A DNA stretch of 64,000 bases from Pirellulales bacterium (GCA_963733035.1 CAVTBU010000005.1:32001-96000), one strand, 5' to 3'; numbered from the stretch's first letter, positions 576 to 50,402 are shown. Notes: a model not told the origin generated them from the letters alone. A program made the numbers and translations.

Positions 576-1598
576 TCAAGCCACAGACACTTTTTCCTGC
601 CACACCTGGCCCTGGCGGAGCATCGCATGCATCACGCGGGCCAGGTAGTGGGCCGTGGCCACCAACGCGATCTTCTTTCGGTCATCGGCGCCTTGATGAA
701 TGCGCTCAAAGAAGTGGCGGATCGTCGGGAATCGCCGCACTCCTTGCCAAGCTGCCTCAGTCAACAGCTTTCGCACCGTCGCTGGTCCTTCGCGTGTAAT
801 GTGCCCCAGCCGGTTCATCGAGCCCGATTGGTCCTGAGCAGGAACCAGACCAAAGTAACAGCCGATCGACTTGGTCGTGCGGAATCGGCTGGGGTCATCG
901 AGATAAGCCGCCATCGCCTCCGCGGTGCGTGCGCCGACACCGGGGATCGTTACCAACAACGCGGAAGCTCCGCTCGCCTGCGAATGGCGTTCAAGCTGCT
1001 TCTCCACACGACGGAGCTGTTCGCTGAAGACGTGCAGCTCCTCTACCAGCAGGTCTCGGCGCATAGCATAGAGAGGGCTGGGCAGTTCGAGCCGTTCCAG
1101 CCAGTATAAGCCTTGCTTGGTCCACAGACCGAACTCCGAGGGGACCGCAATCCCCAGGCTGCGCAACAACCCTCTCAAAGAATTCTTTGCTCGTGTTCGT
1201 TTGTCGATGACCTGCGTCCGGTACTCGATCAGCTGACGCCAGGCTCGCACATCCCCTGACGGAACGTAGACGCCGGGAACCTCGTTCAAAAATAGTAGCT
1301 TCGCCAGCTTCTCGACGTCCACGCGATCGTTCTTGCGCTTGGAGCGGAAGATCAGTCGCAATTGCCCGGGATGGGGCACCACCACGCGCTGGCACACCGG
1401 TTTGAGCAACTCGTAAATGCGTCCGTAACCGCAGGAGGCCTCGTAGCATATGCTGACGGGACCATCCAACACTTTAAGTTGGTCGGCAATGCCCGACCAA
1501 GGACCTCGCACCCTCACCTGTTTGATCCTGCGACCGTTCTTGTCAAGTACACACATCGAAGTGTGCCCGAGGTGAACATCCAAACCGACGAAATACAT
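576..1598 (-). CDS. IS110-family recombinase/transposase
   Basis: N-terminal VGLDVH, EAS and KNDRVD (DEDD RuvC-like); C-terminal TIPGVG and GLVPAQDQSG motifs. Confidence 0.95.
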   Translation of the reverse strand: MYFVGLDVHLGHTSMCVLDKNGRRIKQVRVRGPWSGIADQLKVLDGPVSICYEASCGYGRIYELLKPVCQRVVVPHPGQLRLIFRSKRKNDRVDVEKLAKLLFLNEVPGVYVPSGDVRAWRQLIEYRTQVIDKRTRAKNSLRGLLRSLGIAVPSEFGLWTKQGLYWLERLELPSPLYAMRRDLLVEELHVFSEQLRRVEKQLERHSQASGASALLVTIPGVGARTAEAMAAYLDDPSRFRTTKSIGCYFGLVPAQDQSGSMNRLGHITREGPATVRKLLTEAAWQGVRRFPTIRHFFERIHQGADDRKKIALVATAHYLARVMHAMLRQGQVWQEKVSVA

Positions 1599-1743
1599 CG
1601 TGAAGCCTCCTTCGTACGAGGAACGACACGGACCAAGTAGCCATCGTACCGCTCAGGCTTCCTACATAGAGTCATTTGCAGCGCGGCACATATCGCAATC
1701 GGCGTAACCGCAAGCGGCGCAATCGCTTGACAAAAAATCAGGT

Positions 1744-1765
1744 GCAGGTTCAAATCCTGTCGCCC
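1744..1765 (+). other. tRNA(Pro)-like 3' fragment, probable att site
   Basis: GCAGGTTCAAATCCTGTCGCCC is a T-arm plus part of the acceptor stem; it lies 17 bp beyond the integrase stop; no 5' half of a tRNA is present. Confidence 0.65.
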
Positions 1766-1782
1766 TTCTTCACCTCCCACTC

Positions 1783-2628
1783 TCAATACCCCACCCTCTC
1801 AACCCCTTCCGCCAACTGATCTCCACTCCGTTGCGAATACCGGCTTGTGGTCTGCAGATTCTCGTGCCCCAAGATCTGAGCAAGGGACACGAGATCGTTC
1901 CCATTGTCTGCCAAGAACTGTTTGGCAAACGTGTGTCTGAACAAGTGCGGGTGAAGGCGAACGCCGATCAAAGTCGAGTATTTTTGGCAGAGTGCCCTTA
2001 CGCCATCGTCAGTGATAGGACCTCGCTCGCCAATAAAGACTTTGCTAGAAACCGGAGGGCGAGTCTCCAAGTATTCCTGCAGCGCCCGACGAGCCGGCAA
2101 GGGTAACGGCACAGTCCGCTGCTTGCCGCCCTTGCCATGCCGAAAAACTACTGACCCTGCTCGCTCTCCGATCATCAAGTCTCTCAGTTCAAGATTCACA
2201 AGATCAGACACCCGGCAACCCGTGTAGAGTAGCAATGCAAAGATTGCTCCCGCCCGAACGTCCTGCCGCAGTTCGATCTCGCGCAGCAACCGCCGAACGT
2301 CTGCACGTTCAAGTCCTTTGGGAGCCAATTGCTGCCGCCGCAGTTCCTTCACACCTTTGGCTGGATTGGCTTCCAATCGCCCTTCAACCACCAACCACTC
2401 GAAGAACCTTCGGATCATCACCAGCGCACGATTGATGCTGGCGATCGCCTGCTTTTGTTCCCGGTGCAGATGATTTCGAAAATCCACGACGTCTCGTAGC
2501 GTCGTTCGTTTCACCGTGAAAGGTTCTTGGTTCGCCTCGACGAACCAACTGGCGAACTTCCGGAGGTCGTTGCGAATGGCGCGGCAGGTATGCTCGGAGA
2601 AGTCATGGGCGTCCAGGTAAGCCGCCAC
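1783..2628 (-). CDS. XerC/D-like tyrosine recombinase (integrase 1)
   Basis: YTGCRVSDL, HGKGGKQR, HPHLFRHTFA and LGHENLQTTSRY catalytic motifs; true start may be ~2717 across a frameshift. Confidence 0.93.
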   Translation of the reverse strand: MAAYLDAHDFSEHTCRAIRNDLRKFASWFVEANQEPFTVKRTTLRDVVDFRNHLHREQKQAIASINRALVMIRRFFEWLVVEGRLEANPAKGVKELRRQQLAPKGLERADVRRLLREIELRQDVRAGAIFALLLYTGCRVSDLVNLELRDLMIGERAGSVVFRHGKGGKQRTVPLPLPARRALQEYLETRPPVSSKVFIGERGPITDDGVRALCQKYSTLIGVRLHPHLFRHTFAKQFLADNGNDLVSLAQILGHENLQTTSRYSQRSGDQLAEGVERVGY

Positions 2629-2791
2629 AAGCGACGGCTCCTCGCCCCCGACATGCAGTCCCTCGAAAACATTATCACGCCTATTCCAGCGCTTTTCTGG
2701 CGCAAATCAGACATCATTTGGACGGTTTTCTCCTCGGATTGAACAGATAATGGCACTTATCAGCGCCAGACTATCGGGCGAATACTTTCAC

Positions 2792-3097
2792 CTAATTGGG
2801 GTAAACGACCACGTGAATCGGCTCCGGTCGCTTCTTGCTTCCCTTCTTGGTCAGGGGCGTAATCACATAGAACAATCCATCGACGCCAGACCAGTGAGGT
2901 GACTCCTCGCCCAGGTATTCGACGCGAGCATTCTTTCCGCAGAGTTGCCGCAGTTCTTCGGCGTCGCTGGGCCAAGTATGAATCGCCTCCTCGATCACAA
3001 AGATTTCGTGACCAGAATGTCGGTCCAGGAACTCTTCGAGCCTCAGATAACGTTCGCCCTCGCAGAGATGCTTCCATTCGATGAAGTTCATGATCAC
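2792..3097 (-). CDS. Hypothetical protein
   Basis: 101-aa ORF overlapping the stop of the upstream gene (translational coupling). Confidence 0.55.
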   Translation of the reverse strand: MIMNFIEWKHLCEGERYLRLEEFLDRHSGHEIFVIEEAIHTWPSDAEELRQLCGKNARVEYLGEESPHWSGVDGLFYVITPLTKKGSKKRPEPIHVVVYPN

Positions 3098-3526
3098 GGT
3101 CCCTGCGCCTTCAAGTGGATAAACACCGAGCGAATGACTTGCCCCGGATCGACCTGCTCGACGCCCCGAGGGAACAGCGATTTGATCGCCGCTTCGACCT
3201 GGGCTGAACTGGCAACCAGCCCCAATGACTTCAGCCCTTCGAGCAGTTCGACGTTCAGATTCTGAACGTTTCGTTTCTTGGGCGCTGCTTTTGGGGCGTG
3301 CCGGCAGTAGAACAGGATGGGCTTGCCGTTGATCCCACAGTTCCTACGACGCACTTCTAGACACAATTCTTGCGCCTCCTCGTCATAAAGCGGGCGCCTC
3401 GTGGACGTGTTATAGACAGGAGGTGGGAAGGCGACTTCCGATGAGTTGGTAAAACCTGGCTCTCGATAGCCCAACCATTCGCGCCATTTCAGCCACGGAA
3501 ACCGCCGTTTTGGTCTGATCACCCAT
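3094..3526 (-). CDS. AlpA/excisionase-like HTH protein, one frameshift near 3435
   Basis: AVSVAEMARMVGLSRARFYQLIG continues as AFPPPVYN..TRRPLYDEE in the adjacent frame. Confidence 0.7.
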
Positions 3527-3584
3527 CGGACGTCTAAAACCCTCGAATTTGATTGAATTTGGACACATTTCGGACGTGTTCTGG

Positions 3585-3749
3585 TCAGTTTGTTGAACGT
3601 CTCCCAGCATCGAACGCTGCCTCCGAGGCGTCCTTGATCGACCACACCGAAAGGGAATGAAAATCAAGGCGGTCGCTTTTCCGCTCGTGGAGTGTTTCCA
3701 GCCCCAGATGCTTCTTGGCAATCTCAAGTAAGAGTTGGTCTTTGGTCAC
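3585..3749 (-). CDS. Small DUF6900-like protein (54 aa, absent from the ORF track)
   Basis: Manual translation gives MTKDQLLLEIAKKHLGLETLHERKSDRLDFHSLSVWSIKDASEAAFDAG. Confidence 0.65.
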   Translation of the reverse strand: MTKDQLLLEIAKKHLGLETLHERKSDRLDFHSLSVWSIKDASEAAFDAGRRSTN

Positions 3750-3788
3750 GGTTGTCCCTTCGTAGTCCAGATCGTTGAACTGGATGAT

Positions 3789-4733
3789 CTATCCAGCTGC
3801 GTGTTCATAGCCAGTGCCCGTCAATTGCCGCCGACCTTGGTCATCCTTGATGACCAGCCCCGCACGAATGAGGAACGGTTCACTGACACTGGAGATCGTC
3901 CTGGCAGGCAACCCCAGCAGCGAAGCGATGACGTTTAATCGCTGCGGACCGTCCCTGAGAATGGCAAGGTATCGCTGCTCAATGGGACCAAGCCCGATCT
4001 CGTCGATCTGTTCCAATGCGCACGCACGAGACAAATGATCCAATATGATGAATCTTTCGCCCTGTGCGCGGCACACTCGGTAGCACGCCTGCAGCAATCT
4101 CAAGGCAAGCCGTGGCGTTCCTCGGGATCGCTGAGCGATGAGCGGCAGCACCTCTTGATCGACCTCCCACCGAAGACTTCTCGCTCGGTGCCGAATCACG
4201 GTCGCCAGTTCATCTTCGCTGTAGAAGTCGAAACGTAACACCAGCCGCATTCTTTGGCGCAGAGGGTCGAGCAAAGCGTACTCATCTGTCGTGCTCAGCA
4301 GCAAAGTGAAGTCAGCAATCGGCAACGTCTGGATGCTCTTGCCACCACTCACAAAAAGTTTTCTTTGGTCCAGAGCTAGGTAGAGATTTGTTTGCAGGGC
4401 AGGCTTAATCTCATGAGCCTCATCGACATGACACACTGATTTGTCGCGTGCGCTCAACAGAAACGCATTCAAATCTCCAGGCGTCGAGATGCTTTGCCCG
4501 ATCACCTCGTGAAAATCGGTTGCCATCTCGCTGGCGATCACTCGTGCCATGGCACTCTTGCCGCAGCCCGGTGGACCGACGAGTAGGCACGAGTCCATCT
4601 TCCTGCCATCTTCAAACGCAGCATCTAACGCAACACGAACTTGCTCGACGACACTTCGTTGCCCAGTGATGTGGCTCAGGCTAGAAGGGGAAACGTCCCC
4701 GATTTCTAGATTGTTGCTGTCGTCCATCATCAA
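3789..4733 (-). CDS. RuvB-like AAA+ ATPase (element-borne)
   Basis: GPPGCGKS, VDEAH, PLRQR, SRGTPRLALRLL and C-terminal winged helix with EPFLI. Confidence 0.9.
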   Translation of the reverse strand: MMMDDSNNLEIGDVSPSSLSHITGQRSVVEQVRVALDAAFEDGRKMDSCLLVGPPGCGKSAMARVIASEMATDFHEVIGQSISTPGDLNAFLLSARDKSVCHVDEAHEIKPALQTNLYLALDQRKLFVSGGKSIQTLPIADFTLLLSTTDEYALLDPLRQRMRLVLRFDFYSEDELATVIRHRARSLRWEVDQEVLPLIAQRSRGTPRLALRLLQACYRVCRAQGERFIILDHLSRACALEQIDEIGLGPIEQRYLAILRDGPQRLNVIASLLGLPARTISSVSEPFLIRAGLVIKDDQGRRQLTGTGYEHAAG

Positions 4734-4918
4734 CTTCCTAGCCGTACGATGTGTAGTTCCTGTTCAGCCTCGGCTTTGCTGTGCCAGAGTTCGCCGTCTC
4801 GGCGTCGTTTTTTCCACGCGCCGCTGCGCCAGTAGCGATTTCTCTCACGGTGAAAAATCATCCATCTGCGCCATTTGGGACGTCCGATCTCCAGTAGGAT
4901 CACGTTGTGGGGTGCCAT
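4730..4918 (-). CDS. Small Trp/Arg-rich hypothetical protein
   Basis: 62-aa ORF coupled to the RuvB-like start. Confidence 0.5.
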   Translation of the reverse strand: MAPHNVILLEIGRPKWRRWMIFHRERNRYWRSGAWKKRRRDGELWHSKAEAEQELHIVRLGS

Positions 4919-4964
4919 TTGGCGCGTACCTGTACACCAGTACTTGGAGCGTTTTGCAAGTCCC

Positions 4965-5572
4965 TTACCGAGAAATTCTTTCGAGGGGCTCGAATCCAAG
5001 TGCCTCGAAGGCTTCCTTCAGCCCTTCCTCGCTCGGGTAGCCGCCCTGGTCATCGACGTTCTCGATTTCTCTGCAGCGATTGTCGGAGAGCCACGAGTAA
5101 ACTTCTGATATCCCAGCCCTGGGGCAAATCGAACTCCCCCTTTAACTTCCAGGCTGCGTCGTTGATGTTCTCCACCGTGGCTTCAAATTCACGGTCGGAG
5201 TAATCGTCCTCATCGAGAATCGGATAATCATCGAGGCACTGCATCAAGTGGTGATAGGTCTTGAATGCCTCGGTGATCTCGCCGTTCTTGAACACCCTGA
5301 GGCTGAAGCCATCGAGGACTAGCCCAGTGGCTGTGGCTCTCGGGGACCACATCGGCGTCATCACCCTCGCTGTACGGCTTGAGCAATCGCTGGGTCACGG
5401 TTTCATTCGACTGGTCGATGAGTCCGCTGTCCCGATGGTTTGTATAGACCACGGTCCACTGTTCAGGGTCATCGAGTTCGTTTTTTCGGAACCAGATGAA
5501 GCAGTGGAACTGCTGCCAGTTACCTGCCGCTTGCTTGGCTGCTTCTTCGAGTGTGAGTTCGGCGAGTTTCAT
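4965..5572 (-). CDS. Acidic hypothetical protein, two frameshifts
   Basis: ORFs 5228-5611 and 5050-5364 plus a third frame join into one protein ending ..ENVDDQGGYPSEEGLKEAFEALGF. Confidence 0.6.
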
Positions 5573-5624
5573 GCTCTTCCTGTGTACAACTAAACTTGGG
5601 CGTCCGAGCAAAACAGTGCGCTAC

Positions 5625-6557
5625 CTAAACCTCTTGCAGGTTGCTGCTTTCGAGCTCGGTGGCACGGCTGAAGCTCAGGATGAATTCTGACGCCTTGGAT
5701 GCCTGACTGGCGGCTTGCAGGATGGCACGAGGATCGCTTTCCAGGTGCTTGAGCCAGGACGCCAAGTAGGATGTGTGATTCGTCAGGTCGTCCGACGACG
5801 GCACGCCGGTCTGGGCACAGAGGTAGCACGCCCCGATCTCGGCAATGAGTTCGCCAAGGGCGTAACTTCCCTGCCAGCCTAGCCGCACTTCAGACCAGTG
5901 CACCAATTCGTGGAAACTGGTCGAAACGAAGTCTTTCTGGGAAGCGAACTGACTTGGGTGCGGAATCTGGATGTAGTCGCCGCCGGTGTGGTGGGGAAAT
6001 TCCCCACTCGGTCGCACGTAGAAAGCCTTGTCGCCGCCGAAGTGAAACTCAGCCTCGGTCGCCTGGATTGCGGTTCGAGCGGATTCAAAGTCGGGTTCGA
6101 GCGAAGACGACTCAGAATCGGCAATGGATCGAAGGTGATCGACGCTTTCGCCGTCCACCTGATCGACGTTGAAAACTGTGTAGTATCGGAGCAGAGGGAA
6201 GGATCTGGACCTTCTCCTCGCCGTCCTCGACCTTGATCCGTTTGATCTTCTTGTAGAAGACGATTTGGGTGCCCCAACATCCTGGTTTCACGTTGTCTGG
6301 GCGCTTTTGGACCTGAGCGCCTAGACTTACCCATTGCTGGTAGGTGCCCCAGTGACGGCTCGCATAGCCACGGGACATCGCCACGAGGTCGAGCAGAATG
6401 GGATTTACGCCCGAGTAGGGACGCTTAGAGATGACGTTGGCAGGGAGCCTGAGTTCTTGCCGGGCTGCCAGGGCTTCCGCCAGGGGACGACCCCGTTTTT
6501 GAGTCCTTCGATGATGCGGTCGGTGATGTGCTTCTGGATGTCGGCTTGGCTGGGCAT
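5625..6557 (-). CDS. ardC: ArdC-like ssDNA-binding antirestriction protein (DUF1738 plus zincin-like domain), two frameshifts
   Basis: ITDRIIEGLKNGVVPWRKPW, YSGVN, WGTYQQW, YTVFNVDQ, HELVHW and ELIAEIGA motifs; AAGGAG RBS. Confidence 0.88.
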
Positions 6558-6698: not shown

Positions 6699-8072
6699 AT
6701 GACCAATGGGCTGGAGGTTTTGATGCAGGATAGTACTGCCTACGCCTGTGAAGCATTTGTACGGGCGGCGTTTGAAGCAAAACGCCAATCTGCTGCACAA
6801 GATGAGTTCTACGCAAACAAGGAACTTGACGAGGCGTATCGACACCTTTTCAAGACGGTGGCGAAGGCAACTGCAAGCGATGTCCAGTGGCAGATGGGCT
6901 TTTTCCCATTTGCCTGGGTCTTCGCAGATCACATTTGGGAAGACGATGACCTCGATATTGACGACGCAATTCGAGGCTTTACGAATTCGCTACAGAATAC
7001 CTTGGACGATCTAGCCCTTATTGACTGGATCGCATGCGTTCCATTGGAACGAGCCTTCCAAAAGTTCCCCCCATATACGGACTTCGGATTGTTCTCCATC
7101 GTGAACGCTCGTTCGATGTCGCCTGCTACGGAAGAAGACCTGCTAGCCACTTTTCGCTCGATACTTGCAGATCATTGCAGTGTCAACTTCATGCCTGACT
7201 CTGAAGTTCAGGAGTCGTACGTTCGACTCGGCAGCCATTTTTACGTGAAAAGTCGGTTCTACGTCCCTGGTCGTCCCCTATTGGTCGTGCCCATCGGCAG
7301 AGGTGAAGCAAGCACAAACGCTGAACTCCTCCGTCAACGCATCCATGCCATTGCGCCGCTGCTTCAACTGTGCCAAGTTGTTTTGGAGAGCAACCAGGGG
7401 ACGGATACCAGTGCGAGTGGTCCATATAGTCGGCGACCTGACGGCACGGGATTGCTAGAAGACGGTTTCACGAGAATTCCCCACGTCTGCTTAGCGATCA
7501 ACAAGAGGACGGGGCAGGCTGATTGGTGGAATACGTCGTTGACACAGTACGAGACTCCGGTTGGCGACGGCTATGATCCCGACGCATTCGTAGATACTTG
7601 GCAAAAAACAGTCGGACCATTGATTGAAGCGAACGAAGCCGGTTTTGGGGGCAAACTACGTCAGGCAATTGACAGTGCCATTGCACTTGTGGCGAGATGC
7701 CGTCACGCTGAATTCGGAGATGCCACTCTGCACGCAGTGATCGCCACGGAGACAATTCTTAATCCATTTGGCACCTCCGGTGACATTGCAGAGCGATTTG
7801 CATTGTTGGCAGCCGCCCTCACCCAGTCAGACCCAACAGGGCGGCAAGAGCGATACACGCTTGCAAAGGCGCTTTACAAGGAACGATGCCATGCAGTTCA
7901 CCGATCACGAATGCACGGAAGTGTTGAGAATGCAAGCCATGCAGCCGTGGAAGTTTTTACGGAATGTCTAGGAGCCATACTCCGTTGGGCAATCAGATGC
8001 ACCAAAGAAGGGAAGCGCATAGACCAAGACGCTTTTGAGGAACTGTACGTAGATTCCATCTTCAACCGATAG
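6699..8072 (+). CDS. HEPN-domain protein (ApeA-like C-terminus)
   Basis: IATETIL helix followed by LYKERCHAVH (Rx4H). Confidence 0.7.
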   Translation: MTNGLEVLMQDSTAYACEAFVRAAFEAKRQSAAQDEFYANKELDEAYRHLFKTVAKATASDVQWQMGFFPFAWVFADHIWEDDDLDIDDAIRGFTNSLQNTLDDLALIDWIACVPLERAFQKFPPYTDFGLFSIVNARSMSPATEEDLLATFRSILADHCSVNFMPDSEVQESYVRLGSHFYVKSRFYVPGRPLLVVPIGRGEASTNAELLRQRIHAIAPLLQLCQVVLESNQGTDTSASGPYSRRPDGTGLLEDGFTRIPHVCLAINKRTGQADWWNTSLTQYETPVGDGYDPDAFVDTWQKTVGPLIEANEAGFGGKLRQAIDSAIALVARCRHAEFGDATLHAVIATETILNPFGTSGDIAERFALLAAALTQSDPTGRQERYTLAKALYKERCHAVHRSRMHGSVENASHAAVEVFTECLGAILRWAIRCTKEGKRIDQDAFEELYVDSIFNR

Positions 8073-8221
8073 GGCAGCAGATCATTCTGCATCACAGCGA
8101 GCGACTTCACTACAAAGTTCAATCGTTGATTGCCCTGCCCCACCTCTGGTAGACTTGCTCAGCCGCCCCGAGCGGGTGATGTGGGCTCTTGTGTAGTTAC
8201 CAACAATGGACGGGCGCATTT

Positions 8222-9238
8222 ATGGCAGTGTGGTTAGTTCGGGCAGGGAAGCACGGCGAGAACGAACAGTCAGCCATCGAGAACAAACTCGTCACCATTG
8301 GTTGGAATGAGTTGTCCGACCTATCGCCGTTCCAGAGCCGAGAGGCATTGACCGACCTCTTCGTGCAGGCTCATCCGAACGACTCGAAGCCCAAGGTTTC
8401 GAATGAGGTCGGGCAAATCTGGGCTTTCCGTGGAAGGATTGAGGAAGGTGATCTGGTTGTCCTGCCGCTCAAGACCCAATCGGCGATTGCCATCGGCAGG
8501 GTCGCTGGACCATACAACTACCGAACGGACCTCGGCGATTCCGTCCATCACACTCGAAGCGTCGAGTGGTTGAAGACCGACTTGCCTCGAACGACCTTCG
8601 ATCAAGACATCCTGCATTCGTTCGGCGCATTCATGACGGTTTGCCAGATTAGTCGCAACAATGCGGAGGAACGAATCCGAGCAATCATTGGCGGAAAGTC
8701 TCACCCAGGTGGAGGGAGCAAGTCAGACGACGAGCCAGAAGATGAAACCGAATCTTCGCTCGACATCGAACAAGCCGCCAAGGATCAAATTCTCAATCAC
8801 ATTCAAAGCAAGTTCGCTGGACACGCACTTGCCAGAATTGTTGACGCAGTTCTTCAAGCCGAAGGATACTTGACCCGTGTTTCACCTCCTGGTCCCGATG
8901 GTGGCGTAGACATCCTCGCAGGCACTGGACCGATGGGCTTCGGAGAACCGAGACTTTGCGTGCAAGTCAAATCATCTTCGTCACCCGCCGATGTGAACAT
9001 CCTGCGTGGTTTGCAAGGCATTCTTCAGAATTTCCACGCCGACCAAGGTTTGCTCGTCTGCTGGGGTGGGTTCAAGACCTCAGTGCTTCAGGAAGCCCGC
9101 CAGAGTTTCTTTACGATTCGTCTATGGGATTCTGGCGACCTCCTCGCAGCGATCCTGCGTAACCACGACAAGTTTCCCGACGAACTTCAGGCAGAGTTAC
9201 CCTTGAAACGGATTTGGGCGTTGGTGTTAGAGGACTAG
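8222..9238 (+). CDS. mrr: Mrr-family type IV restriction endonuclease
   Basis: N-terminal WLVRAG; C-terminal GPDGGVDILA..VQVK (D..QxK). Confidence 0.88.
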   Translation: MAVWLVRAGKHGENEQSAIENKLVTIGWNELSDLSPFQSREALTDLFVQAHPNDSKPKVSNEVGQIWAFRGRIEEGDLVVLPLKTQSAIAIGRVAGPYNYRTDLGDSVHHTRSVEWLKTDLPRTTFDQDILHSFGAFMTVCQISRNNAEERIRAIIGGKSHPGGGSKSDDEPEDETESSLDIEQAAKDQILNHIQSKFAGHALARIVDAVLQAEGYLTRVSPPGPDGGVDILAGTGPMGFGEPRLCVQVKSSSSPADVNILRGLQGILQNFHADQGLLVCWGGFKTSVLQEARQSFFTIRLWDSGDLLAAILRNHDKFPDELQAELPLKRIWALVLED

Positions 9239-9246
9239 GAAATCAA

Positions 9247-10233
9247 ATGGCAAACAACCTCTCCGAAATTGAAAAACGGCTCTGGGAATCGGCGGACCAA
9301 CTGCGTGCCAATTCCAACCTCAAATCGTCCGAGTACTCGGTGCCGGTGCTCGGGCTGATCTTCTCTGCGCTACGCCGATCACAAGTTCTCCATCGCCGAG
9401 CAGGAACTGGCGGGCAAGGGGTCGGGGCGGCGAAAGATCGGCAAGGCGGACTATCAAGCCCAAGGCGTGATGTATCTCCCGCCCGAGGCTCGCTTCTCAA
9501 AACTGCTTGAACCTGCCCGAGGGAGAGAACATCGGCAAGGCGATCAACGAGGCGATGAAGGCGGTCGAAGCCGAGAACGACGAACTGAAAGGCGTCCTGC
9601 CGAAGACGTACACCAGGATTGAGAACTCAACACTAGTCACGCTGCTGAAGACGTTCTCGCAGATTCCGATGGACATCGAGGGCGATGCCTTTGGGAAAAT
9701 CTACGAATACTTCCTCGGCAATTTCGCCCGTGCCGAAGGTCAGAAGGGCGGCGAGTTCTTCACGCCCACCTCACTTGGTCCGGCTCATCGTCGAGATCAT
9801 CGAACCCTATCACGGTCTGATCTTCGATCCCGCCTGCGGATCGGGCGGCATGTTCGTTCAAAGTGCCGATTTCGTCAAAGCACATAAGAAAAGTCCCAGT
9901 GCCGAGATTTCCATCTACGGTCAAGAACGGGTGGACGAGACTCGACAACTTTGTCTGATGAACCTCGCCGTCCATGCCCTGTCGGGCGAAATCCGTGAAG
10001 GCAACAGTTACTACGAAGACTTGCACAAAAGCGTCGGCAAGTTCGACTTCGTATTGGCTAATCCGCCGTTCAACGTGTACAAGGTGGACAAGGAGAAGAT
10101 CAAGGACGACCCTCGGTTTCCGTTTGGGATGCCACGGGCGGACAATGCCAACTACCTGTGGATTCAATTGTTCTACAGCACCTTGAACGCCAAAGGTCGC
10201 GCGGGCTTCGTTGGAGTTCCCCCCGTGAAATGA
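9247..10233 (+). pseudogene. hsdM: Type I R-M methyltransferase HsdM, frameshifted and 3'-truncated
   Basis: [25 protein letters not shown] and ANPPFN motifs; breaks after GRAGFV at an IS3-like terminus (TGGAGTTCCCCCC, ~10212); no hsdS or hsdR follows. Confidence 0.85.
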
Positions 10234-10447
10234 ACCAGTGCGAAAATGGTGAGGCCACTATTTCTTGATATGCGATTTGGGCGAATACCGTACGTGACCA
10301 CATTGCTGAAGCAACTCGACTCATCCGACACGGCGGCGCACTGACGCGACTCGGCTTCTGACCCACGCACACAGTAGTTTGTCGGCATTCTCCGAGGTCC
10401 AGAGCTTGTTCGATCCGTTCCAATAAGGACACTTGGAGTAGTCGGCA

Positions 10448-11251
10448 ATGAATCGAGACAAAGAACGCTTCTACCACGCCCAAGCCGCAAAGCTAGATCG
10501 GAGACGCAAATGGCAATGTATGGTGGTTTTTCCCCTAGTCGCCCGATTTGGCGATCTTGTGCGTATTGAGCTCGAATACCAACACGGCAGATTCAAAATC
10601 GATTTGTATATTCCGGCGCTGAAGCTTGCGGTTGAAGTTGACGAGCCATTTCATAGCCGACAAGAGGAAGCCGATGCACGGCGGATGACATGCATCGAAT
10701 CGGAACTCGGCTGCGAGTTTACCCGTATAAAAGTCAATAATGTAGCCGGTGTCTATGGCCAACTCGACGACCTCTGCCAGGAGATTGAGCGACGGCTAGC
10801 TGAGCTCTCCTTGGAAACGTGGCAACTTCCAACTCGCAGCCGAATCCGTCGTGAGTCCTCGTCAGCCGGCTACAGCGACGGAAACCTCCACGAGCTAGAA
10901 CAAAGCGGGATTCCAGCTCGTGTCAGCGAGATGAGACTAGACCTGGAGTCTCTCCAAATCGACGTGATTGACGACTTGGGGCCTGTAATCCCCGGAAACG
11001 GCGAGCTCGGATTTTCGGTCGCCATGCCGGGAATTAAGTTCTGCATTAGCATTAGGTCAAACGGCCAGGCGAAAGTTCTGGTGACTGACTACTTGGAGCC
11101 AGCTCTGAAATCGTTGGGAATCACACTAGACGGACCCAAGAAAGGGCGGGTGCCATATTGGGTAATCAACGAGCTTCGTGGCCGATTCGACATCGAGGTG
11201 CTCACAGGCCGGCTGGCAACATTTCATCAAATACTGCAAGACTCGCTGTGA
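10448..11251 (+). CDS. PvuRts1I/AbaSI- or DUF559-like endonuclease
   Basis: IDLYIPALKLAVEVDEPFH...DARR motif; C-terminal half not recognised. Confidence 0.6.
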   Translation: MNRDKERFYHAQAAKLDRRRKWQCMVVFPLVARFGDLVRIELEYQHGRFKIDLYIPALKLAVEVDEPFHSRQEEADARRMTCIESELGCEFTRIKVNNVAGVYGQLDDLCQEIERRLAELSLETWQLPTRSRIRRESSSAGYSDGNLHELEQSGIPARVSEMRLDLESLQIDVIDDLGPVIPGNGELGFSVAMPGIKFCISIRSNGQAKVLVTDYLEPALKSLGITLDGPKKGRVPYWVINELRGRFDIEVLTGRLATFHQILQDSL

Positions 11252-19336: not shown

Positions 19337-19858
19337 TCAGTAACTCAATCTCTCCACGCCTTCAGCTAACTGCTCGCCGCCTCGCTGCGAGTAGCGGCTT
19401 GTGGTTTGTAGATTGTGGTGACCGAGAATCTGAGCCAGACTCACCAAGTCATTTGCGTTGTCCGCAAGGAATTGCTTCGCCATCGTGTGTCGAAAGACGT
19501 GCGGGTGCAGGCGCACGCCAATCAGCGCCGAATACTTTCGACTTAACGCACGCACACCGTCGTCCGTCAATGGTCCCCTCTCGCCAACAAAGACTGTCAT
19601 CGACTCGACCGCTGGCCGAGAATCCAAATAAATCTGCATTGCCCGACGAGCCGGCAGCGGAAGTGGCACCGCTCGCTGCTTGTTTCCCTTTCCGTGGCGA
19701 AATACCACCGAACCATTTCGTTCTCCAATCTGAATGTCGGACAGCTCCAGATTCACAATGTCGCTGACCCGACAGCCCGTGTAGAGCATCAAACTAAAGA
19801 TCGCCCCGGCTCGAATGTCGTGCCGCAATTCAATCTCTCGCAACAATCGCCGACGCTC
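19337..19858 (-). pseudogene. Tyrosine recombinase C-terminal fragment (integrase 3)
   Basis: Paralogous to 1783-2628 from RRLLREIEL to the stop; N-terminus absent. Confidence 0.88.
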
Positions 19859-21512
19859 GAACGCGGTGAACCAGCGACAGTTGACGATTGGCTCAGTAGC
19901 ACGGCAATCGCATCTTAATTTGCGGCGAAACCCAGGAGAATTCGTTCGAGGGTGTTGATATTGAGGCAGGCGCGGTAGCGTTTGCCGCGGATGTTGTCTT
20001 TGATGGAAGTGTCCGCCGAGAGGATGGACACTGCCAGGCGTCGCAACATGGCCGAGGTCTGGGGTGCGTGCTGCTTGCGGATGCGGCTGGCGTCTTCTGA
20101 AAAAGTTACATCGAGCACCCAGTGCAACTGGCTTTCGATGCTCCAGTGCTGGCGGATGAATTTGGCCAGCGTCTTCACCTTGGGCGGCAGGCTGCTGAGG
20201 AAGTAGCTGTGACCAGCGTTGATTTTCTGTACCACCGGTTATGAAGGTAGGGGTTGGGATAAAGGTTCTTCGTCTTGGGTTCGCGTGTGCTGCTGGAGCG
20301 CAGGCGCAGCCGGAGCGGAAGCAGCACACGGGCGGCGAACTCCGAGGGGGTCCGGTAGCCCAGCGAACTGTGCGGCCGGTGATGGTTGTAATCCTCTCGC
20401 CAAGCGGCCGTTAGCGTGCGGGCTGCCGCCAGGTTCTCGAATACCTCCACGGTCAGGAACTCGTCCCGCAGCCGGCTGTGGAAGCTCTCGGCGTAGCCGT
20501 TCTCCCAGGGGCTGCCCGGCTCAATGTACAACGCTTCGACGTCCACCTGGTCCAGCCAGCGCCGGATCGTCGCGGCAACGAACTCGGGACCGTTGTCGCT
20601 ACGGATGTGCTTGCGGCACGCCCCGCATCGCAAACAGCTCGGCCAGCGTGTCGATCACGTCCTCGCTGGTGATGCTGCGATCCACCTTCAACGCCAGGCA
20701 CTCCCGCGTGTGCTCGTCCACGATCGAGAGCCACTTCAGCTGGCTGCCACTGGCCGTGCGATCGAAGACGAAGTCCCAGCACCAGACGTGGTCCTTGTGA
20801 TCGCTCGCCGCCTGTGACAAGCGTTCGCGCTCGTGCCCAATCGCCGCTTTTTCGCTTCTTTTGCGGCACTTTCAGACCCTCCCGACGCCACAGCCGATAC
20901 ACCGCGTGTCGCTGGCGCTGCCATCCTTCGTGACGCAATAGCTTGCGGTGATCCGCCGATAGCCGAAACGCGGATGCTCCCGCGCCAACTCCAGCATCCG
21001 CCTCACCAGCGCCGGTTCGTCGTCGCGTGGCTTGGCTGGTAACGTTGACTCGCCCGCGGTTGGTCCAACACCCGGCACGCCCTTCGCTCGGAGACTGCGA
21101 ACTCCTTGCGAAGCTCACCGACCGCCGCACGCTTCCGCGAAGGGCTTACCAGTTTCCCTCCGCGACGTGCTTCAGCATCTGGATGTCGAGAGCCTGGTCG
21201 GCCACGATCTGCTTCAGCCGGCGGTTCTCGTCTTCCAGCTCCTTCAGCCGCTTCGCCTCCTCGGCCTTCATCCCGCCGTACTGGTTCCGCCAGCGGTCGA
21301 ACGTCGACTGGCTGACCTCCAAGGCCTGCAGCACGGCCGCCAGGTCCTTGCCGGCGTTGAGCATCGCGTCCGCATCCCGCAGCTTCCGCACGATCTGCTC
21401 CGGGTTGTGTCGCTTCCGTCGCTTCGTCGTCATCGAAGGTCTCCTTGCCCTCCAGGGGCTCAAGACCTTCATAACACGTGGATCAGGATTTCAACAGCAC
21501 CCATAACCACAG

Positions 21513-29247: not shown

Positions 29248-30606
29248 TGAGGTGGACCCCAACTGTTGGACAGTTTTGGGGCTTGGATAAGATGTAGGTC
29301 GCCGGGTCTGGCGGCCCGTGAGACCTCTCACGGGTCTCGCGCGGCCGCGACGGCTGACGACGGTTTGGGTTCCGTTTGATTCTCCTCTTTAACCCTGCCT
29401 CAACAGGGATTTGAGCGCCGAACGTTTCGCGCTGTTTTCTGCCCGTACAACTCGGCCGGCGTGCGGTAGCCGAGGGCCTGGTGGATTCGTCGCTGGCAGT
29501 AGAACTCGAAGTAGCGGGCCAGCGATTGCTCCGCCTCCCAACCATCGGCGTAGTCCCGCAGGTACACCTCCTCGTACTTCACGCTCCGCCACAGCCGTTC
29601 GATGAACACGTTGTCGAGCGCCCGACCGCGACCGTCCATCGAGATCGCCACGCCACACTTCTCCAATCGGCCCGTGAAGGCCGCCGCCGTGAACTGGCTT
29701 CCTTGATCGCTGTTGAAAATCTCCGGGCGCTTGGTGGCCAGTGCCTCGTCGAGTGCTTCTAGGCAAAATCTTCCTTCGAGCGTGTTCGACAACCGCCAGG
29801 CCAACACGTAGCGACTGAACCAGTCCATCACCGCCGTCAGATACAAAAAGCCGTGGCGCAACGGAATGTACGTGATGTCGCTGGCCCACACCTGGTCGGG
29901 CCGCGTAATCTCCAGATTCCGCAGCAAATACGGGTAAATCTTGTGTCCGGCGGCCGGGCGCGTGGTGCGTCGCTTGACGCCCACCGCCTCCAAACCCATC
30001 AACCGCATCAGTCGCTGAGCATGCTTGCGATTGATGCCAAGCTCGATCGCCATCTTGCGGCTGCCGTAAAACGGCGTTTGCAAATACTGCTCGTCGATCC
30101 GCTTCATCAGCGCCAGGTTCTCGGCCGTCTCGCCGCTCGGCACGTAATACCGGGTGCTGCGCGGCAGGCCGACCAGCTCGCACTGTCGGGCGATACTCAA
30201 CGGGGCGTGATGGGTGTCGATGCATCTTCGCTTGGCCTCAGGCGAGCTCGGCAGATTTTTTTTTCAACCACTCGACCTCCATCTTCAAGCGGCCGATCTG
30301 CTCGTAAAGTTCCTGCTCGCCCGCCGACTGCTCGTCGCGTCGCGCGCGGCCGTCCTCGAACAGTCCGGCCGCTTGCTCCAAGAGCTGCTTCTTCCAGGCC
30401 GTGACCTGGCTGGTGTGCACGCCGAACTCGCTGGCCAACTGGGCCGTCGTCCTGTCACCTCGGACCGCCGCCAAAGCCACCTTGGCCTTGAACGCCGCCC
30501 CAAACACCCGCCGCTTCCGCGTCATGCTGGCACACTCCTGATTCGGTCGTCTCCGCACCCGGAAACCACACCTTATCAGCGCGCCCAGTTTTTGGGGTCC
30601 ACCTCA
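29248..30606 (-). mobile_element. IS3-family element, copy 1
   Basis: IR TGAGGTGGACCCC; orfA 30238-30523; orfB 29400-30200 with WASDITY, NSDQGSQF and DNVFIERLW; A9 frameshift tract. Confidence 0.95.
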
Positions 30607-35638: not shown

Positions 35639-36997
35639 TGAGGCGGACCCCAAAAACTGGGCGCGCTGATAAGGTGTGGTTTCCGGGTGCGGAGACGACC
35701 GAATCAGGAGTGTGCCAGCATGACGCGGAAGCGGCGGGTGTTTGGGGCGGCGTTCAAGGCCAAGGTGGCTTTGGCGGCGGTCCGAGGTGACAGGACGACG
35801 GCCCAGTTGGCCAGCGAGTTCGGCGTGCACACCAGCCAGGTCACGGCCTGGAAGAAGCAGCTCTTGGAGCAAGCGGCCGGACTGTTCGAGGACGGCCGCG
35901 CGCGACGCGACGAGCAGTCGGCGGGCGAGCAGGAACTTTACGAGCAGATCGGCCGCTTGAAGATGGAGGTCGAGTGGTTGAAAAAAAAATCTGCCGAGCT
36001 CGCCTGAGGCCAAGCGAAGATGCATCGACACCCATCACGCCCCGTTGAGTATCGCCCGACAGTGCGAGCTGGTCGGCCTGCCGCGCAGCACCCGGTATTA
36101 CGTGCCGAGCGGCGAGACGGCCGAGAACCTGGCGCTGATGAAGCGGATCGACGAGCAGTATTTGCAAACGCCGTTTTACGGCAGCCGCAAGATGGCGATC
36201 GAGCTTGGCATCAATCGCAAGCATGCTCAGCGACTGATGCGGTTGATGGGTTTGGAGGCGGTGGGCGTCAAGCGACGCACCACGCGACCGGCCGCCGGAC
36301 ACAAGATTTACCCGTATTTGCTGCGGAATCTGGAGATTACGCGGCCCGACCAGGTGTGGGCCAGCGACATCACGTACATTCCGTTGCGCCACGGCTTTTT
36401 GTATCTGACGGCGGTGATGGACTGGTTCAGTCGCTACGTGTTGGCCTGGCGGTTGTCGAACACGCTCGAAGGAAGATTTTGCCTAGAAGCACTCGACGAG
36501 GCACTGGCCACCAAGCGCCCGGAGATTTTCAACAGCGATCAAGGAAGCCAGTTCACGGCGGCGGCCTTCACGGGCCGATTGGAGAAGTGTGGCGTGGCGA
36601 TCTCGATGGACGGTCGCGGTCGGGCGCTCGACAACGTGTTCATCGAACGGCTGTGGCGGAGCGTGAAGTACGAGGAGGTGCACCTGCGGGACTACGCCGA
36701 TGGTTGGGAGGCGGAGCAATCGCTGGCCCGCTACTTCGAGTTCTACTGCCAGCGACGAATCCACCAGGCCCTCGGCTACCGCACGCCGGCCGAGTTGTAC
36801 GGGCAGAAAACAGCGCGAAACGTTCGGCGCTCAAATCCCTGTTGAGGCAGGGTTAAAGAGGAGAATCAAACGGAACCCAAACCGTCGTCAGCCGTCGCGG
36901 CCGCGCGAGACCCGTGAGAGGTCTCACGGGCCGCCAGACCCGGCGACCTACATCTTATCCAAGCCCCAAAACTGTCCAACAGTTGGGGTCCACCTCA
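35639..36997 (+). mobile_element. IS3-family element, copy 2 (inverted, near-identical to copy 1)
   Basis: Same ORFs; only about 3 substitutions seen by eye. Confidence 0.95.
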
Positions 36998-46826: not shown

Positions 46827-47018
46827 ATGCCTTTCGACCTTCATATCGGCATCGACTATTCGGGCCGGGAGACACCAACCTCTCGTACGCCTGCATTGCA
46901 CGTCTACGCAGCCTTCGACGACGATTAGTCTCGATCCATTCCAACGCCATCATCGCCAGCGAGGCTGTATAAGAACTGGTGCCGCAAGGACATTGCCGAA
47001 TGGTTGATCATTCGGGCT
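46827..47018 (+). pseudogene. 5' fragment of an IGIDYSG (RNase H-like/DUF429-like) gene
   Basis: MPFDLHIGIDYSGRETPT...KNWCRKDIAEWL with one internal stop; cut at the att-like motif. Confidence 0.55.
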
Positions 47019-47032
47019 CAGGTTCAAATCCT
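47019..47032 (+). other. att-like T-loop motif CAGGTTCAAATCCT
   Basis: Identical to 1745-1758; similarity between the two integrase loci ends here. Confidence 0.7.
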
Positions 47033-47055
47033 CGCGCCTTCTGCGCCCCCGCACC

Positions 47056-47844
47056 GCAATACCCCACCCTCTCCACTTCCTCTGCCAACTGGTTCCCACT
47101 CCGTTGCGAATACCTGCTCGTCGTCTGCAAATTCTCGTGCCCGAGCAGCTGAGCAAGCGACACGAGATCGTTCCCAGTGTCTGCCAGGAACTGCTTGGCA
47201 AACGTGTGCCTAAACAAGTGCGGATGCAGCCGAACTCCGACCAATGCCGAATACTTTTGGCACAACGCCCTTACGCCATCGTCAGTGATAGGACCTCGCT
47301 CGCCAATAAAGACTTTGCTAGAAACCGGAGGGCGAGTCTCCAAGTATTCCTGCAGCGCCCGACGAGCCGGCAAGGGTAACGGCACAGTCCGCTGCTTGCC
47401 GCCTTTGCCATGCCGAAACACCACGGAACCAGACCGCTCCCCGATCATGAGATCCGTCAGTTCAAGATTCACAAAGTCAGACACCCGGCATCCCGTAAAG
47501 AGCAACAATCCGAAGATTGCTGCAGCCCGAATGTCCTGCCGCAATTCAATCTCACGCAGTAACCTGCGAACGTCAGCACGTTCAAGTCCCTTGGGGGCAA
47601 GTTGTTGCCGCCGCAGTTCCTTCACGCCCTTGGCTGGGTTTGCCTCCAATCGCCCTTCAACCACCAACCACTCGAGGAACCTGCGGATCATCACCAGTGC
47701 ACGGTTAATGCTGGCGACCGCCTGCCTTCGCTCCCGGTGCAGATGATTTCGAAAATCCACGACGTCCCGCAGCGTCGTTCTTTTCACAGTGAAAGGTTCT
47801 CGATTTGCCTCGTCGAACCAACGCGCGAACTTCCGCAGGTCGTT
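47056..47844 (-). pseudogene. Tyrosine recombinase (integrase 2), 5'-truncated, stop codon lost
   Basis: Very similar to integrase 1; TGA changed to TGC after RVGY. Confidence 0.88.
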
Positions 47845-48329: not shown

Positions 48330-49997
48330 CTATTTTGTCGGCTTCCAGTTTGCGTTCCTCATACGCGCTGGAATTTTGCTTGCGGCAAGATCGAACTCAG
48401 CCCGATCGAAACAGATTTCGCTGCTCCCTGTGACACAATCGGTGAATGGCGGTCGCAAGTGGACTTTTCCCGTGGAGATTTTTGATGCGCCGGGCATCGT
48501 CGGGTGACGAGCGAACCAGACATCAATGCGCTTGACTAAACCACGGATCGCAATGCAGAGCAAGTCGATATCACCTCCGCACAAGGCGACCCGAAACCGT
48601 GCCGCTTGCCCCATGACCTCGGCCACCAGTTTCTCTGAGGCGCCTTGCTCGGTATTGATCTTTGCTGGCTTTCCAAACGGCAAATCAGTTCCGGCAAATG
48701 CTTGGATTTCCTCCAAGGTATCTATCGGTTGCATCCGCAGGCGAGACTCCAGGTCACGGTCGAGCACGCGTTCCGTCAACAGATCGACAATCAACCGCTG
48801 AAGGATGGGCTGTGAGATCGAGCGTGGGCGACAGACGGTTCGTCCCTTAGTGTGGTACGTCGGACACTCAAGTCGCCGGTAATACACGACTTTGTCTTTG
48901 CGGATATTACGGTGATGATTGACGTTCAACGTCGTGCCACAATGACCACAGACCACCAAGCTCTTCAGGGGATCGATGACAGGTGAAGGCTTCCTGCGGC
49001 GCTGTTGCCGGAGCCTCGCTTGAACGCGGTCAAACTGTGCCCGCTCGACGAGGGCCGGGTGGACATTCTTGACGACAACCCAGTCGGACCGGTCGTTGGC
49101 AATGCGGCCGCGCGTGCGATACCCAAACTTCTTCGTAAACGCAGCCTCTAGCACAATCTCTCCGCCAAGCAGGCCCGCGTATTTTCCAACGTGTCGACGA
49201 TTCCAGACCCGATCGCCTACGTAGACTGGATTGGCCAAAATCTTACGAATCGTATCGGAACTCCAATGGTGGCCCTCCGGCGACGGTACCCGCCGTCGAT
49301 TCAGCGAGACGGCCAATCCCCGGATCGACATCCCTCGATCGTACGACCTAAAGCGCCACCGCACGGTCCGAATAATCGAGGAGTCGAGTGTCGGTACCAG
49401 GCTACCCGTCCACTCTTTGGGTTTTGATAGCTTCTGAAGCGGAGCGAGACGCCGGACTAATTCGCCTCGCTCATCGAAGATCAATTTGTTGTAACCATAC
49501 GGAATCTTCCCGACATGAAGACGACCTTCAAGGGCGCGCTGATGTGCGCCTCGGAGAATGCCACGGGCCAGGTCGACCAGGAACGCGTGTTTCGCCTCTT
49601 GCTGAATCGTATAGATCAGCCGTCCGATGGCATCGTTCCAGGTGATTTCCCCATCCGTCACGGTTACCAGTTCAATCCCGGCGCGGCGAAGGGGACCAAT
49701 CCATTCTCCCGCCTCGATTGAATCGAATCGTCCGAACCTGTCCTGTGACCAGCACAGGATCGTCTCAAACGACTTCCTTTCAGCGTCAGCCACCATGCGT
49801 CGAAACGCCACACGCCGTCTGATGTCATCGCCAGATACGGCCAAGTCTTCGTACCACCGGACGATCTCATAGCCACGACGCTGGGCAAGCTTCTTGATTT
49901 GATCCCGTTGCTGTCTTGGACTCGACTTTTGCATCTCGCTCGACATTCGGACGTAGCCGACGGCGCGCCGCTTCGATTTGGCCCGGTTCGCACGCAT
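48330..49997 (-). CDS. Large serine recombinase
   Basis: AVGYVRMSS..Q, DRFGR, PYGY, ILANPVYVG and Zn-ribbon CGHCG..C..C. Confidence 0.92.
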   Translation of the reverse strand: MRANRAKSKRRAVGYVRMSSEMQKSSPRQQRDQIKKLAQRRGYEIVRWYEDLAVSGDDIRRRVAFRRMVADAERKSFETILCWSQDRFGRFDSIEAGEWIGPLRRAGIELVTVTDGEITWNDAIGRLIYTIQQEAKHAFLVDLARGILRGAHQRALEGRLHVGKIPYGYNKLIFDERGELVRRLAPLQKLSKPKEWTGSLVPTLDSSIIRTVRWRFRSYDRGMSIRGLAVSLNRRRVPSPEGHHWSSDTIRKILANPVYVGDRVWNRRHVGKYAGLLGGEIVLEAAFTKKFGYRTRGRIANDRSDWVVVKNVHPALVERAQFDRVQARLRQQRRRKPSPVIDPLKSLVVCGHCGTTLNVNHHRNIRKDKVVYYRRLECPTYHTKGRTVCRPRSISQPILQRLIVDLLTERVLDRDLESRLRMQPIDTLEEIQAFAGTDLPFGKPAKINTEQGASEKLVAEVMGQAARFRVALCGGDIDLLCIAIRGLVKRIDVWFARHPTMPGASKISTGKVHLRPPFTDCVTGSSEICFDRAEFDLAASKIPARMRNANWKPTK

Positions 49998-50402
49998 TGG
50001 AGGAGATCCCATTAAGGGTAGTTGTCGTAGATGGCGATTTATTTCCGCACCCGAAAACGGTACAAACAACCGCGAGCAACGCGAAGTGGAAAGATTCGCG
50101 CTAGTTCAACGTCTCCGTGCCCTCTATTCGGTGCGCTGGAGCGATGAGAGAGCCGCAACGAAGCTAGTGTGTGTGGGATCGGACGAAGACCTCGATCTAG
50201 GTGGTTCGGTGATCTGTCGCTGGGCGTCGTATTTCTCTAACCGCCACTATGAGCCTGCTGCTCGGTCGGGCCTCCATTGTCCAGCGAAGTGATCCGGCCA
50301 TCGGACCAGACGTGCAAGTTCACTCGCATCGCATCGACCATCGACGAAGGTAGAGGGACAAATCGCAGTCCCACTTCTTTGCTGTCCGCCTTTTTGTGGT
50401 CG

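Follow-up and report, generated by a model that had tools for sequence, protein, structure and literature searches.

A RuvB paralogue conserved beside an HTH protein and a Xer-like integrase in apparently undescribed integrating elements of Planctomycetota

Simple Xer-type recombinases have, to our knowledge, no built-in choice between integration and excision, and the only well-understood external driver of Xer recombinases that we know of is the cell-division translocase FtsK. The question of whether an integrating element may bring along a motor of its own is raised by a stretch of 64,000 nucleotides (nt) from a Pirellulales bacterium (GCA_963733035.1, CAVTBU010000005.1; G000:C5:32001-96000), here called the window, with all window positions counted from its first letter. 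At 1744-6557 an initial annotation, made from the DNA alone, had described one co-oriented block of genes that pairs a RuvB-like ATPase with a Xer-like integrase, and every feature that it listed was found there, with some qualifications given below. On the minus strand, from 6557 to 1783, the order is ArdC, a gene for a protein of about 200 amino acids (aa), an 89-aa open reading frame (ORF), the RuvB-like gene, DUF6900, a helix-turn-helix (HTH) gene, a 101-aa ORF and the integrase. That the integrase regularly travels with the RuvB relative and with the HTH protein, called the adaptor below, suggests a so far undescribed means to power or steer site-specific recombination.

A RuvB paralogue and its constant neighbours

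The ATPase gene (RuvBL; 3789-4733, minus strand) is intact and encodes 314 aa with all three RuvB domains and the ATPase motifs. RuvB_N, AAA_lid_4 and RuvB_C scored 100.5, 44.8 and 54.4 bits, respectively, all above the Pfam cut-offs, and the closest solved structures were RuvBs (E 5e-49 to 1e-34). Walker A GK, Walker B DE, sensor-1 TT, R155 and sensor-2 R202 were invariant or nearly so in 53 family members. On the NCBIfam models of RuvB the protein stayed under the cut-offs, with 217.5 against 282 for NF000868 and 205.9 against 299.05 for TIGR00635. The genome has its own housekeeping pair, in which ruvA (C7:517581-518180) lies directly upstream of a ruvB that scored 381.5 bits.

An exhaustive search provided representatives of full-length clusters, 70 in all, and 54 of these scored under the RuvB cut-off (129-270 bits) and 16 over it (337-515 bits). 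In an unrooted tree of 77 rows (quick search, LG+G4; P0123 was left out as partial), 17 canonical RuvBs were split from 60 paralogues by a branch with an SH-aLRT of 100, and the window ATPase was nested deep among the paralogues. The phylogeny that the initial annotation had proposed as a check thus sets the ATPase outside the canonical clade and not among housekeeping proteins; it is a RuvB paralogue distinct from the chromosomal RuvB.

Two structural remarks of the initial annotation were borne out by alignment to RuvB of Thermotoga maritima (1IN4/1IN5). The presensor beta-hairpin by which RuvB binds RuvA, estimated to be about 4 residues shorter, carries two 2-residue gaps and is shorter by exactly 4, and the wing reads KDDQGRR where T. 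maritima RuvB has RTPRGR. The hairpin segment counts 21 residues in the window, 25 in 15 of the 17 canonical RuvBs and fewer than 25 in 57 of the 60 paralogues.

The integrase gene (1783-2628, minus strand) is likewise intact. SAM_1 (39.4 bits) occupies residues 8-83 and Phage_integrase (99 bits) residues 106-266 of its 281 aa, so that a SAM-like core-binding domain and the catalytic domain fill residues 8-266 and leave no room for an arm-binding domain, as had been supposed for this short enzyme. The catalytic R, K, HxxR, H and Y are readable in the translation. Neither NCBIfam cut-off was reached (XerC, 184 against 335.15; XerD, 160.2 against 329.6), and by its sequence the protein classifies as a simple Xer-like tyrosine recombinase, not as XerC or XerD proper. 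Other Xer-like genes, with about 30% identity, are located at C5:995869 and C7:530546.

A scan of the JGI metagenomes returned 511 ATPase relatives, and linkage was counted in the best 80 of these 511, taking as denominator the loci with enough flank for the gene in question. The HTH gene followed the ATPase in 58 of 58 loci with at least 550 nt downstream, and the integrase was found downstream in 38 of 39 loci with at least 1700 nt. On the upstream side, ArdC was present in 18 of the 30 loci offering at least 2200 nt and in 15 of 22 with at least 5000 nt, and the 200-aa gene in 12 of 51 with at least 800 nt. DUF6900 and the 101-aa ORF were found downstream in 2 of 60 (at least 300 nt) and 2 of 43 loci (at least 1100 nt), respectively. 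Among ten loci in reference genomes, the HTH gene was present in all ten, the integrase in nine (L008 being without it) and ArdC in five. The survey of neighbourhoods that the initial annotation had suggested therefore found the linkage to the integrase conserved in metagenomes and reference genomes alike, and that to ArdC in part of the loci.

The same order was kept in four further loci in which the ATPase is about 40% and the integrase 25-29% identical to those of the window. The HTH gene and the integrase were present in all four, the 200-aa gene in three and ArdC in two (1.5-kb flanks). On the counts for all these loci, the ATPase, the HTH protein and the integrase, in this order, are the invariant unit.

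Of 400 other genomes sampled from the phylum, only 3 carried a copy at least 60% identical, and all seven reference-genome matches were metagenome-assembled genomes of Planctomycetota. The family was not found in 72,556 plasmid records, in 50,697 phage records or in IMG/VR (2.9 million viral contigs). The best identity was 33% in viral contigs and 34% in phage records, and plasmid, phage and viral matches all stayed at or below 35%, which is the level of canonical RuvB. A literature search of titles and abstracts returned no account that couples a tyrosine recombinase with a RuvB paralogue, and DUF6900 turned up in no paper at this level. As far as titles and abstracts tell, the phrase "little-described element class" of the initial annotation is apt, and what is new here is an integrating element with a private RuvB-family motor and adaptor beside its recombinase and a protein like a recombination directionality factor (RDF). 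These elements apparently form a widespread, undescribed family of small integrating elements.

The HTH protein and a possible recombination module

The adaptor gene (3097-3526, minus strand) carries one frameshift near 3425-3435 and is read in frames -1/-2 by comparison with an intact homologue. Its protein has 822 homologues, which are about 145-160 aa long and make up a family without a Pfam domain. In an AF2 model (pLDDT 80), a winged HTH at residues 8-62 is predicted to be joined by a basic linker to a three-helix bundle at 96-144. All Pfam matches were sub-threshold and, among 50 members, fell to AlpA (16), HTH_17 (14) and MerR (4), with best E values in the family of 0.0012 for Phage_AlpA, 0.0008 for HTH_17 and 0.0022 for MerR. 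The N-terminal domain weakly resembles CarH/MerR-type regulators and the RdfS excisionase (Foldseek E of at least 0.1), and Foldseek searches with the full adaptor and with the C-terminal domain alone gave no match at E<=0.001.

RuvA domain III is the RuvB-binding part of RuvA, and RuvA domains I-II recognise the junction. Profile comparison by hhalign matched the C-terminal domain of the adaptor to RuvA domain III (columns 143-189 of 191) with E values of 6.5e-4 and 1.9e-4 for two alignments over 47 columns. The score of 28.5 was reached by none of 100 column shuffles (maximum 18.2), and the controls scored 10.7 for a reversed alignment, 18.4 for the ATPase alignment and 13.9, over 12 columns, for RuvA domains I-II, to which the adaptor thus showed no similarity. 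The initial annotation had called the motor RuvA-less. This description stands in that no counterpart of RuvA domains I-II was found, but not in full, given the profile similarity of the HTH protein to domain III; the motor is probably not adaptor-less.

When the ATPase was co-folded with residues 90-149 of the adaptor, the ipSAE was 0.56 and that of the best of three controls 0.00, which weakly supports a predicted contact. The runs agreed in at least 97% of contacts with a partner pLDDT of at least 79. The mark that was passed here is also passed by 116 of 157 solved complexes and by 2 of 215 mismatched pairs. Because the complex of RuvA domain III with RuvB is already solved, the pass may reflect likeness only, and not binding. 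On the profile, fold and co-fold results together, the chances that the C-terminal domain is a RuvB-binding handle are about even, and binding between the adaptor and the motor is weakly indicated.

Some related ATPases are built differently. RuvB-paralogue domains end longer proteins of 464-1022 aa (P0162, P0176, P0199, P0210, P0256, P0264, P0270 and others), and when 150 representatives were searched by profile, the N-terminal extensions of the long forms matched neither the adaptor nor any RuvA domain. In P0170 (322 aa), the ATPase is continued by a stretch that matches the adaptor profile at positions 33-84 (E 8.5e-5), which may be a natural fusion or an artefact of read-through or frameshift. 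No longer homologues (fused forms) of the adaptor were found, in a search that is itself weak evidence.

We read window positions 1783-6557 as the backbone of a decayed element copy, and the trio of motor, adaptor and recombinase as a recombination module, a reading in which we place half of our confidence. The recombinase would integrate and excise the element via a Holliday junction, with the crossover at or beside its own stop codon. The adaptor would bind the DNA of the element ends like an RDF, and its domain-III-like helices would recruit the RuvB paralogue. As a putative hexameric AAA+ protein that pumps double-stranded DNA (dsDNA), the RuvB paralogue would act on the flanking duplex, through branch migration, isomerisation or dismantling of the synapse. 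This pumping would make the reaction one-way, and the element would have its own version of what FtsK is for XerCD and RuvA for RuvB. ArdC would protect the element DNA on entry into a new host. Sequence comparison establishes what the genes are, the separate clade of the ATPase, its conserved linkage and the end at the integrase stop, whereas the roles of the trio in recombination and of ArdC are inferred.

In its most specific form, the proposal is that a tyrosine recombinase owns a RuvAB-like machine, in which an excisionase-type protein with a domain-III-like handle loads a duplex pump at the element ends. This form is tentative, and we regard it as somewhat more doubtful than the general one. 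With similar reserve, direction might then be set by ATP-driven branch migration or synapse remodelling instead of by arm sites and bending proteins.

Several observations weigh against the recombination module. The hhalign probability of the match to RuvA domain III was 27-48%. The C-terminal fold is a generic UBA-like bundle, for which the best RuvA in Foldseek (7oa5_B) ranked fourth with an E value of 1.7; with VIA-align, RuvA chains reached Z scores of 4.7 and 4.2, tied with UBA and many helical domains and below RMI1 (Z 7.6). The co-fold score lies in a weak band: both of the mismatched pairs above the mark scored 0.60 or less, as did only 18 of the 157 solved complexes. Since the hairpin that RuvB uses for RuvA is shortened by 4 residues, any interface would differ from that of RuvAB. 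The identities of ATPase and integrase were uncorrelated within the range of 59-76% (rho 0.16, p 0.35, n=36), and neither att repeats nor a far end could be located for any of the copies. The frameshifts of the window copy, described below, could be long-read consensus errors and not decay, and the indels seen at 3 of their 5 sites fit both. The layout of AAA+ domain, lid and winged helix is common to initiators, and weak matches to Cdc6_lid and orc1/cdc6 were seen as well.

The layout of the ATPase leads to the best-surviving alternative, a replication module. The element, circular after excision, would have to be copied; the adaptor would bind an internal origin and bring the RuvB paralogue onto it, as initiator or as a motor similar to a helicase, the integrase working alone. 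Orc1/Cdc6- and DnaA-type proteins, with an AAA+ domain plus a winged helix, are initiators, and many integrating elements have a replication module beside int and xis. Pfam searches were run over 75 ORFs of the window, taking in only ORFs of at least 90 aa at E<=1e-5 outside 1744-6557. In agreement with the initial annotation, no ruvA, ruvC, relaxase, type IV secretion system (T4SS), replicase or capsid gene was detected among these 75 ORFs, nor was any primase or rep in the window or in the loci of five annotated relatives; no other replication gene was thus seen in the backbone of either. However, the best matches of the ATPase were by far the three domains of RuvB, which is a duplex pump and not an origin melter. 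The absence of the family from the plasmid and phage records and from IMG/VR would be odd for autonomous replication, and the ATPase stands with the integrase wherever the flank allows (38/39). We therefore consider a replication module unlikely, if the most serious of the competitors.

An entry or establishment module has a lower probability still. In such a module the motor, together with ArdC and the 200-aa protein, would protect or remodel incoming single-stranded or newly converted DNA after transfer, or help it to pair with the target, instead of acting on the junction made by the integrase. ArdC is known to protect transferred single-stranded DNA (ssDNA), it is found upstream of the ATPase in 18 of 30 loci, and the order of ArdC, 200-aa gene and ATPase is kept in the distant paralogues. 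However, ArdC is absent from 12 of 30 and the 200-aa gene from 39 of 51 loci, whereas the adaptor and the integrase are essentially always there. No relaxase, coupling protein or T4SS was found in the 75 window ORFs or in the 110 ORFs of the five relatives' loci, and no oriT-associated gene either.

Just as improbable is a defence, anti-defence or transcription-control unit of ATPase and adaptor that hitch-hikes by the integrase: the elements do carry defence genes, defence systems include AAA+ ATPases that have HTH partners and AlpA-type proteins of some islands activate transcription, but PADLOC matched the ATPase only over Walker-A-sized stretches (25-58 residues, E of at least 1.4e-6) and the adaptor and the 200-aa protein not at all, and the cargo varies among copies whereas the pair, its position and its order relative to the integrase are constant.

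If the motor does act on the recombinase junction, as the recombination module has it, homologous-recombination machinery would be tied to site-specific recombination in a new way. Recombinase directionality would have a third solution beside the RDF/arm-site architecture and FtsK-XerCD, in the form of a compact set of three proteins whose ATP-dependent switch would be open to tests in vitro. A RuvAB-like recombination system would then be widespread in uncultured Planctomycetota and their neighbours, in a family with hundreds of metagenome copies (the JGI scan counted 511 ATPase relatives, and the adaptor has 822 homologues). The triad of ATPase, adaptor and integrase may also be of use as a marker for defence-carrying islands in Planctomycetota, a phylum in which gene transfer is poorly known.

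The window copy, its ends and its surroundings

The remaining genes of the backbone are less constant and, in part, frameshifted. ArdC (5625-6557, minus strand) has both the ssDNA-binding ArdcN domain and the zincin metallopeptidase domain MPTase-PolyVal, but in three frames (-3/-2/-3) and not in one, with frameshifts near 6447 and 6200; it is intact in L005, L007, L019 and L020 at 291-357 aa. The initial annotation had placed two hypothetical genes downstream of it. These are mostly one gene, that of the 200-aa protein (4980-5572, minus strand), which is broken by two frameshifts near 5316-5321 and 5110-5123 (frames -1/-2/-3) and which in L007, L018 and L019 forms one uninterrupted frame, 199-202 aa long. 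Its sole family match was the uncharacterised phrog_4313, and the ESM Atlas provided no usable match. One extra ORF of 89 aa (4730-4999, minus strand) had no family match and no tblastn match in relatives; it is unconserved and its reality is doubtful.

Two occasional accessories complete the backbone. DUF6900 (3585-3749, minus strand) is a small protein of 54 aa that scored 80 bits on Pfam PF21841 against a gathering score of 24.1. The 101-aa ORF (2792-3097, minus strand), of unassigned function, had no family match in library scans, and a homologue is present in L004 besides the two metagenome loci counted above. A second, partial copy of ArdC was seen elsewhere in the genome (C7:16699-17391); it is 69-83% identical to that of the window and appears split over more than one frame.

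By placing intact homologues onto the window, five frameshifts were mapped, two in ArdC, two in the 200-aa gene and one in the HTH gene, each of which is a single open frame in relatives. The window has unbroken frames for the ATPase, the integrase, DUF6900 and the 101-aa ORF. At 48-64 kb, the genes of the chromosome run as long ORFs without interruption, which argues that the frameshifts are real. Related-strain contigs from one soil run, which holds 12% of the window words and leaves the ArdC part uncovered, differ from the window by indels exactly at 3 of the 5 frameshift sites (3434, 5110 and 5317/5321). No RNA sequencing run was listed as containing window sequence. With its adaptor, ArdC and 200-aa genes frameshifted and its cargo invaded by insertion sequences (IS), the window copy is probably dead.

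The left end of the element is indicated by comparison with its relatives. Two copies in the complete genome G270 (L018 and L019), with different surroundings and different cargo, share DNA that is 84% identical and that sets in exactly at the integrase stop, and a soil-metagenome copy that is 90-97% identical departs from the window at 1782, one base before that stop. Because related copies lose homology exactly there, the end of the element is taken to coincide with the stop codon of the integrase.

Beyond this point, 17 nt past the integrase stop, the initial annotation had recognised a tRNA-like att. A fragment of 22 nt at 1744-1765 (plus strand), comprising T-arm and acceptor, is indeed identical in 22 of 22 positions to the 3' end of tRNA-Pro(GGG) at C4:192575-192650, and none of 100 shuffles gave any match. 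The match is real, but it lies outside the DNA that is common to related copies; because their homology ends at 1782, the fragment probably represents flanking or target DNA, or else the end of an adjacent island, and not the element itself. A whole tRNA or tmRNA at the att was rejected, none being found in the window by ARAGORN or Rfam. A common tRNA target was rejected as well, since the DNA downstream of the integrase is not common to the relatives and no tRNA gene adjoins the integrase in any of 10 relatives' loci.

For the two G270 copies, a search for flanking direct repeats over about 70 kb found nothing better than 17 nt that match with one mismatch (E 0.44). Toward the far end, their similarity fades gradually after an Exo_endo_phos gene (EEP nuclease/phosphatase), which is located beyond the backbone at 11384-12241 of L018 and 12518-13378 of L019 with 86% identical DNA. 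This gene may belong to the backbone of the G270 lineage.

On C4, tRNA-Pro(GGG) is followed by four copies of its 22-nt 3' end, at 247532, 265736 (95%), 277131 and 281656, which suggests a tandem island array. The 93 nt at C4:281585-281677 are 93.5% identical to window 1673-1765, and no homologue of the window integrase was found in the region C4:192575-281677. A different accumulation of tRNA sequences was detected by ARAGORN on C6 (241456-268483), where 44 tRNA genes with most anticodons lie in about 27 kb. Arrays of this kind are seen in large phages or tRNA islands.

Upstream of ArdC, the cargo of the window copy (6699-11251, plus strand) consists of genes for a 457-aa uncharacterised protein and for an Mrr-type nuclease, of an hsdM that is both truncated and frameshifted, and of a gene like a methyl-directed restriction endonuclease. 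The Mrr-type nuclease (8189-9238, plus strand) matched the PADLOC candidate defence system PDC-S02 over its full length (E 5.9e-144). Between copies the cargo varies and includes restriction-modification and BREX-like genes, methylases and PDC-S02. The family thus appears to carry defence genes as cargo in elements that integrate into chromosomes.

The left flank, outside the element, holds an IS110-family transposase (576-1598, minus strand; Pfam DEDD_Tnp_IS110 and Transposase_20). To the right, a second integrase copy of the same family (19337-20329, minus strand) is 81% identical in its C-terminal 170 residues (19340-19852), and a third (47008-47844, minus strand) is 92% identical over residues 20-281 (47059-47844) and adjoins a degenerate tRNA-Pro T-arm-like stretch (47019-47040). 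Several IS elements lie in the right-hand cargo. With three related integrase copies, one of them by a second T-arm-like stretch, the region is therefore best read as a tandem pile of related, decaying, IS-ridden islands.

Two further features were noted in this region. Beyond the third integrase copy and beside an HTH_31 gene, there is a large serine recombinase (48330-50069, minus strand; Resolvase, Recombinase and Zn_ribbon_recom domains), which may be the sign of a further element at this hotspot. A repeat of 1.25 kb occurs at window positions 29248-30500 and 35745-36997 (inverted) and again at C7:2725-3973, C7:7872-9121 and C2:7429-8676. Its five copies are 98.7-99.8% identical and encode a 278-aa protein without Pfam match, and the repeat may be an unclassified insertion sequence.

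Comparison with known systems

Among classes of mobile elements, the integrative conjugative and mobilizable elements are defined by a relaxase, coupling protein or T4SS, none of which was found in the 75 and 110 ORFs mentioned above. Phage satellites of the PICI or P4-like type, with the order int-alpA-primase/rep, differ by their primase or rep, absent here, and the phage and viral matches of the ATPase were only at the level of canonical RuvB. Among the PADLOC defence systems, there was no full-length match to the ATPase, the adaptor or the 200-aa protein. The ArdC-bearing anti-defence or leading regions, and the small planctomycete ArdC islands, are alike in that ArdC heads the backbone and that defence cargo is present; as a difference, no relaxase or T4SS was found in the element described here.

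Modules of an integrase with a Xis or RDF protein (Xis, AlpA, TorI, RdfS) share the arrangement of a small winged-HTH gene directly upstream of the integrase and co-oriented with it. In contrast, the HTH protein of the present family has an extra conserved C-terminal domain, and the gene of an AAA+ motor always precedes it. We know of no described RDF with such a domain and such a preceding motor.

The closest analogue on the side of the recombinase is FtsK-XerCD at dif, together with XerS and XerH, where a simple Xer-type recombinase is likewise combined with a hexameric dsDNA translocase, here a possible setter of direction. The motor of the present element differs in that it belongs to the RuvB family and not to FtsK/HerA, is the element's own and seems to depend on a separate DNA-binding adaptor.

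On the side of the motor, the closest system is RuvAB. The ATPase has RuvB_N, AAA_lid_4 and RuvB_C with their motifs, and the C-terminal domain of the adaptor is similar in profile to RuvA domain III. In contrast to RuvB proper, the ATPase falls in a separate clade and under the curated cut-offs, with its hairpin 4 residues shorter and its wing altered. An excisionase-type HTH stands where the junction-recognising domains I-II of RuvA would be, and the ATPase gene, carried by a mobile element, has a site-specific recombinase for a neighbour and neither ruvA nor ruvC.

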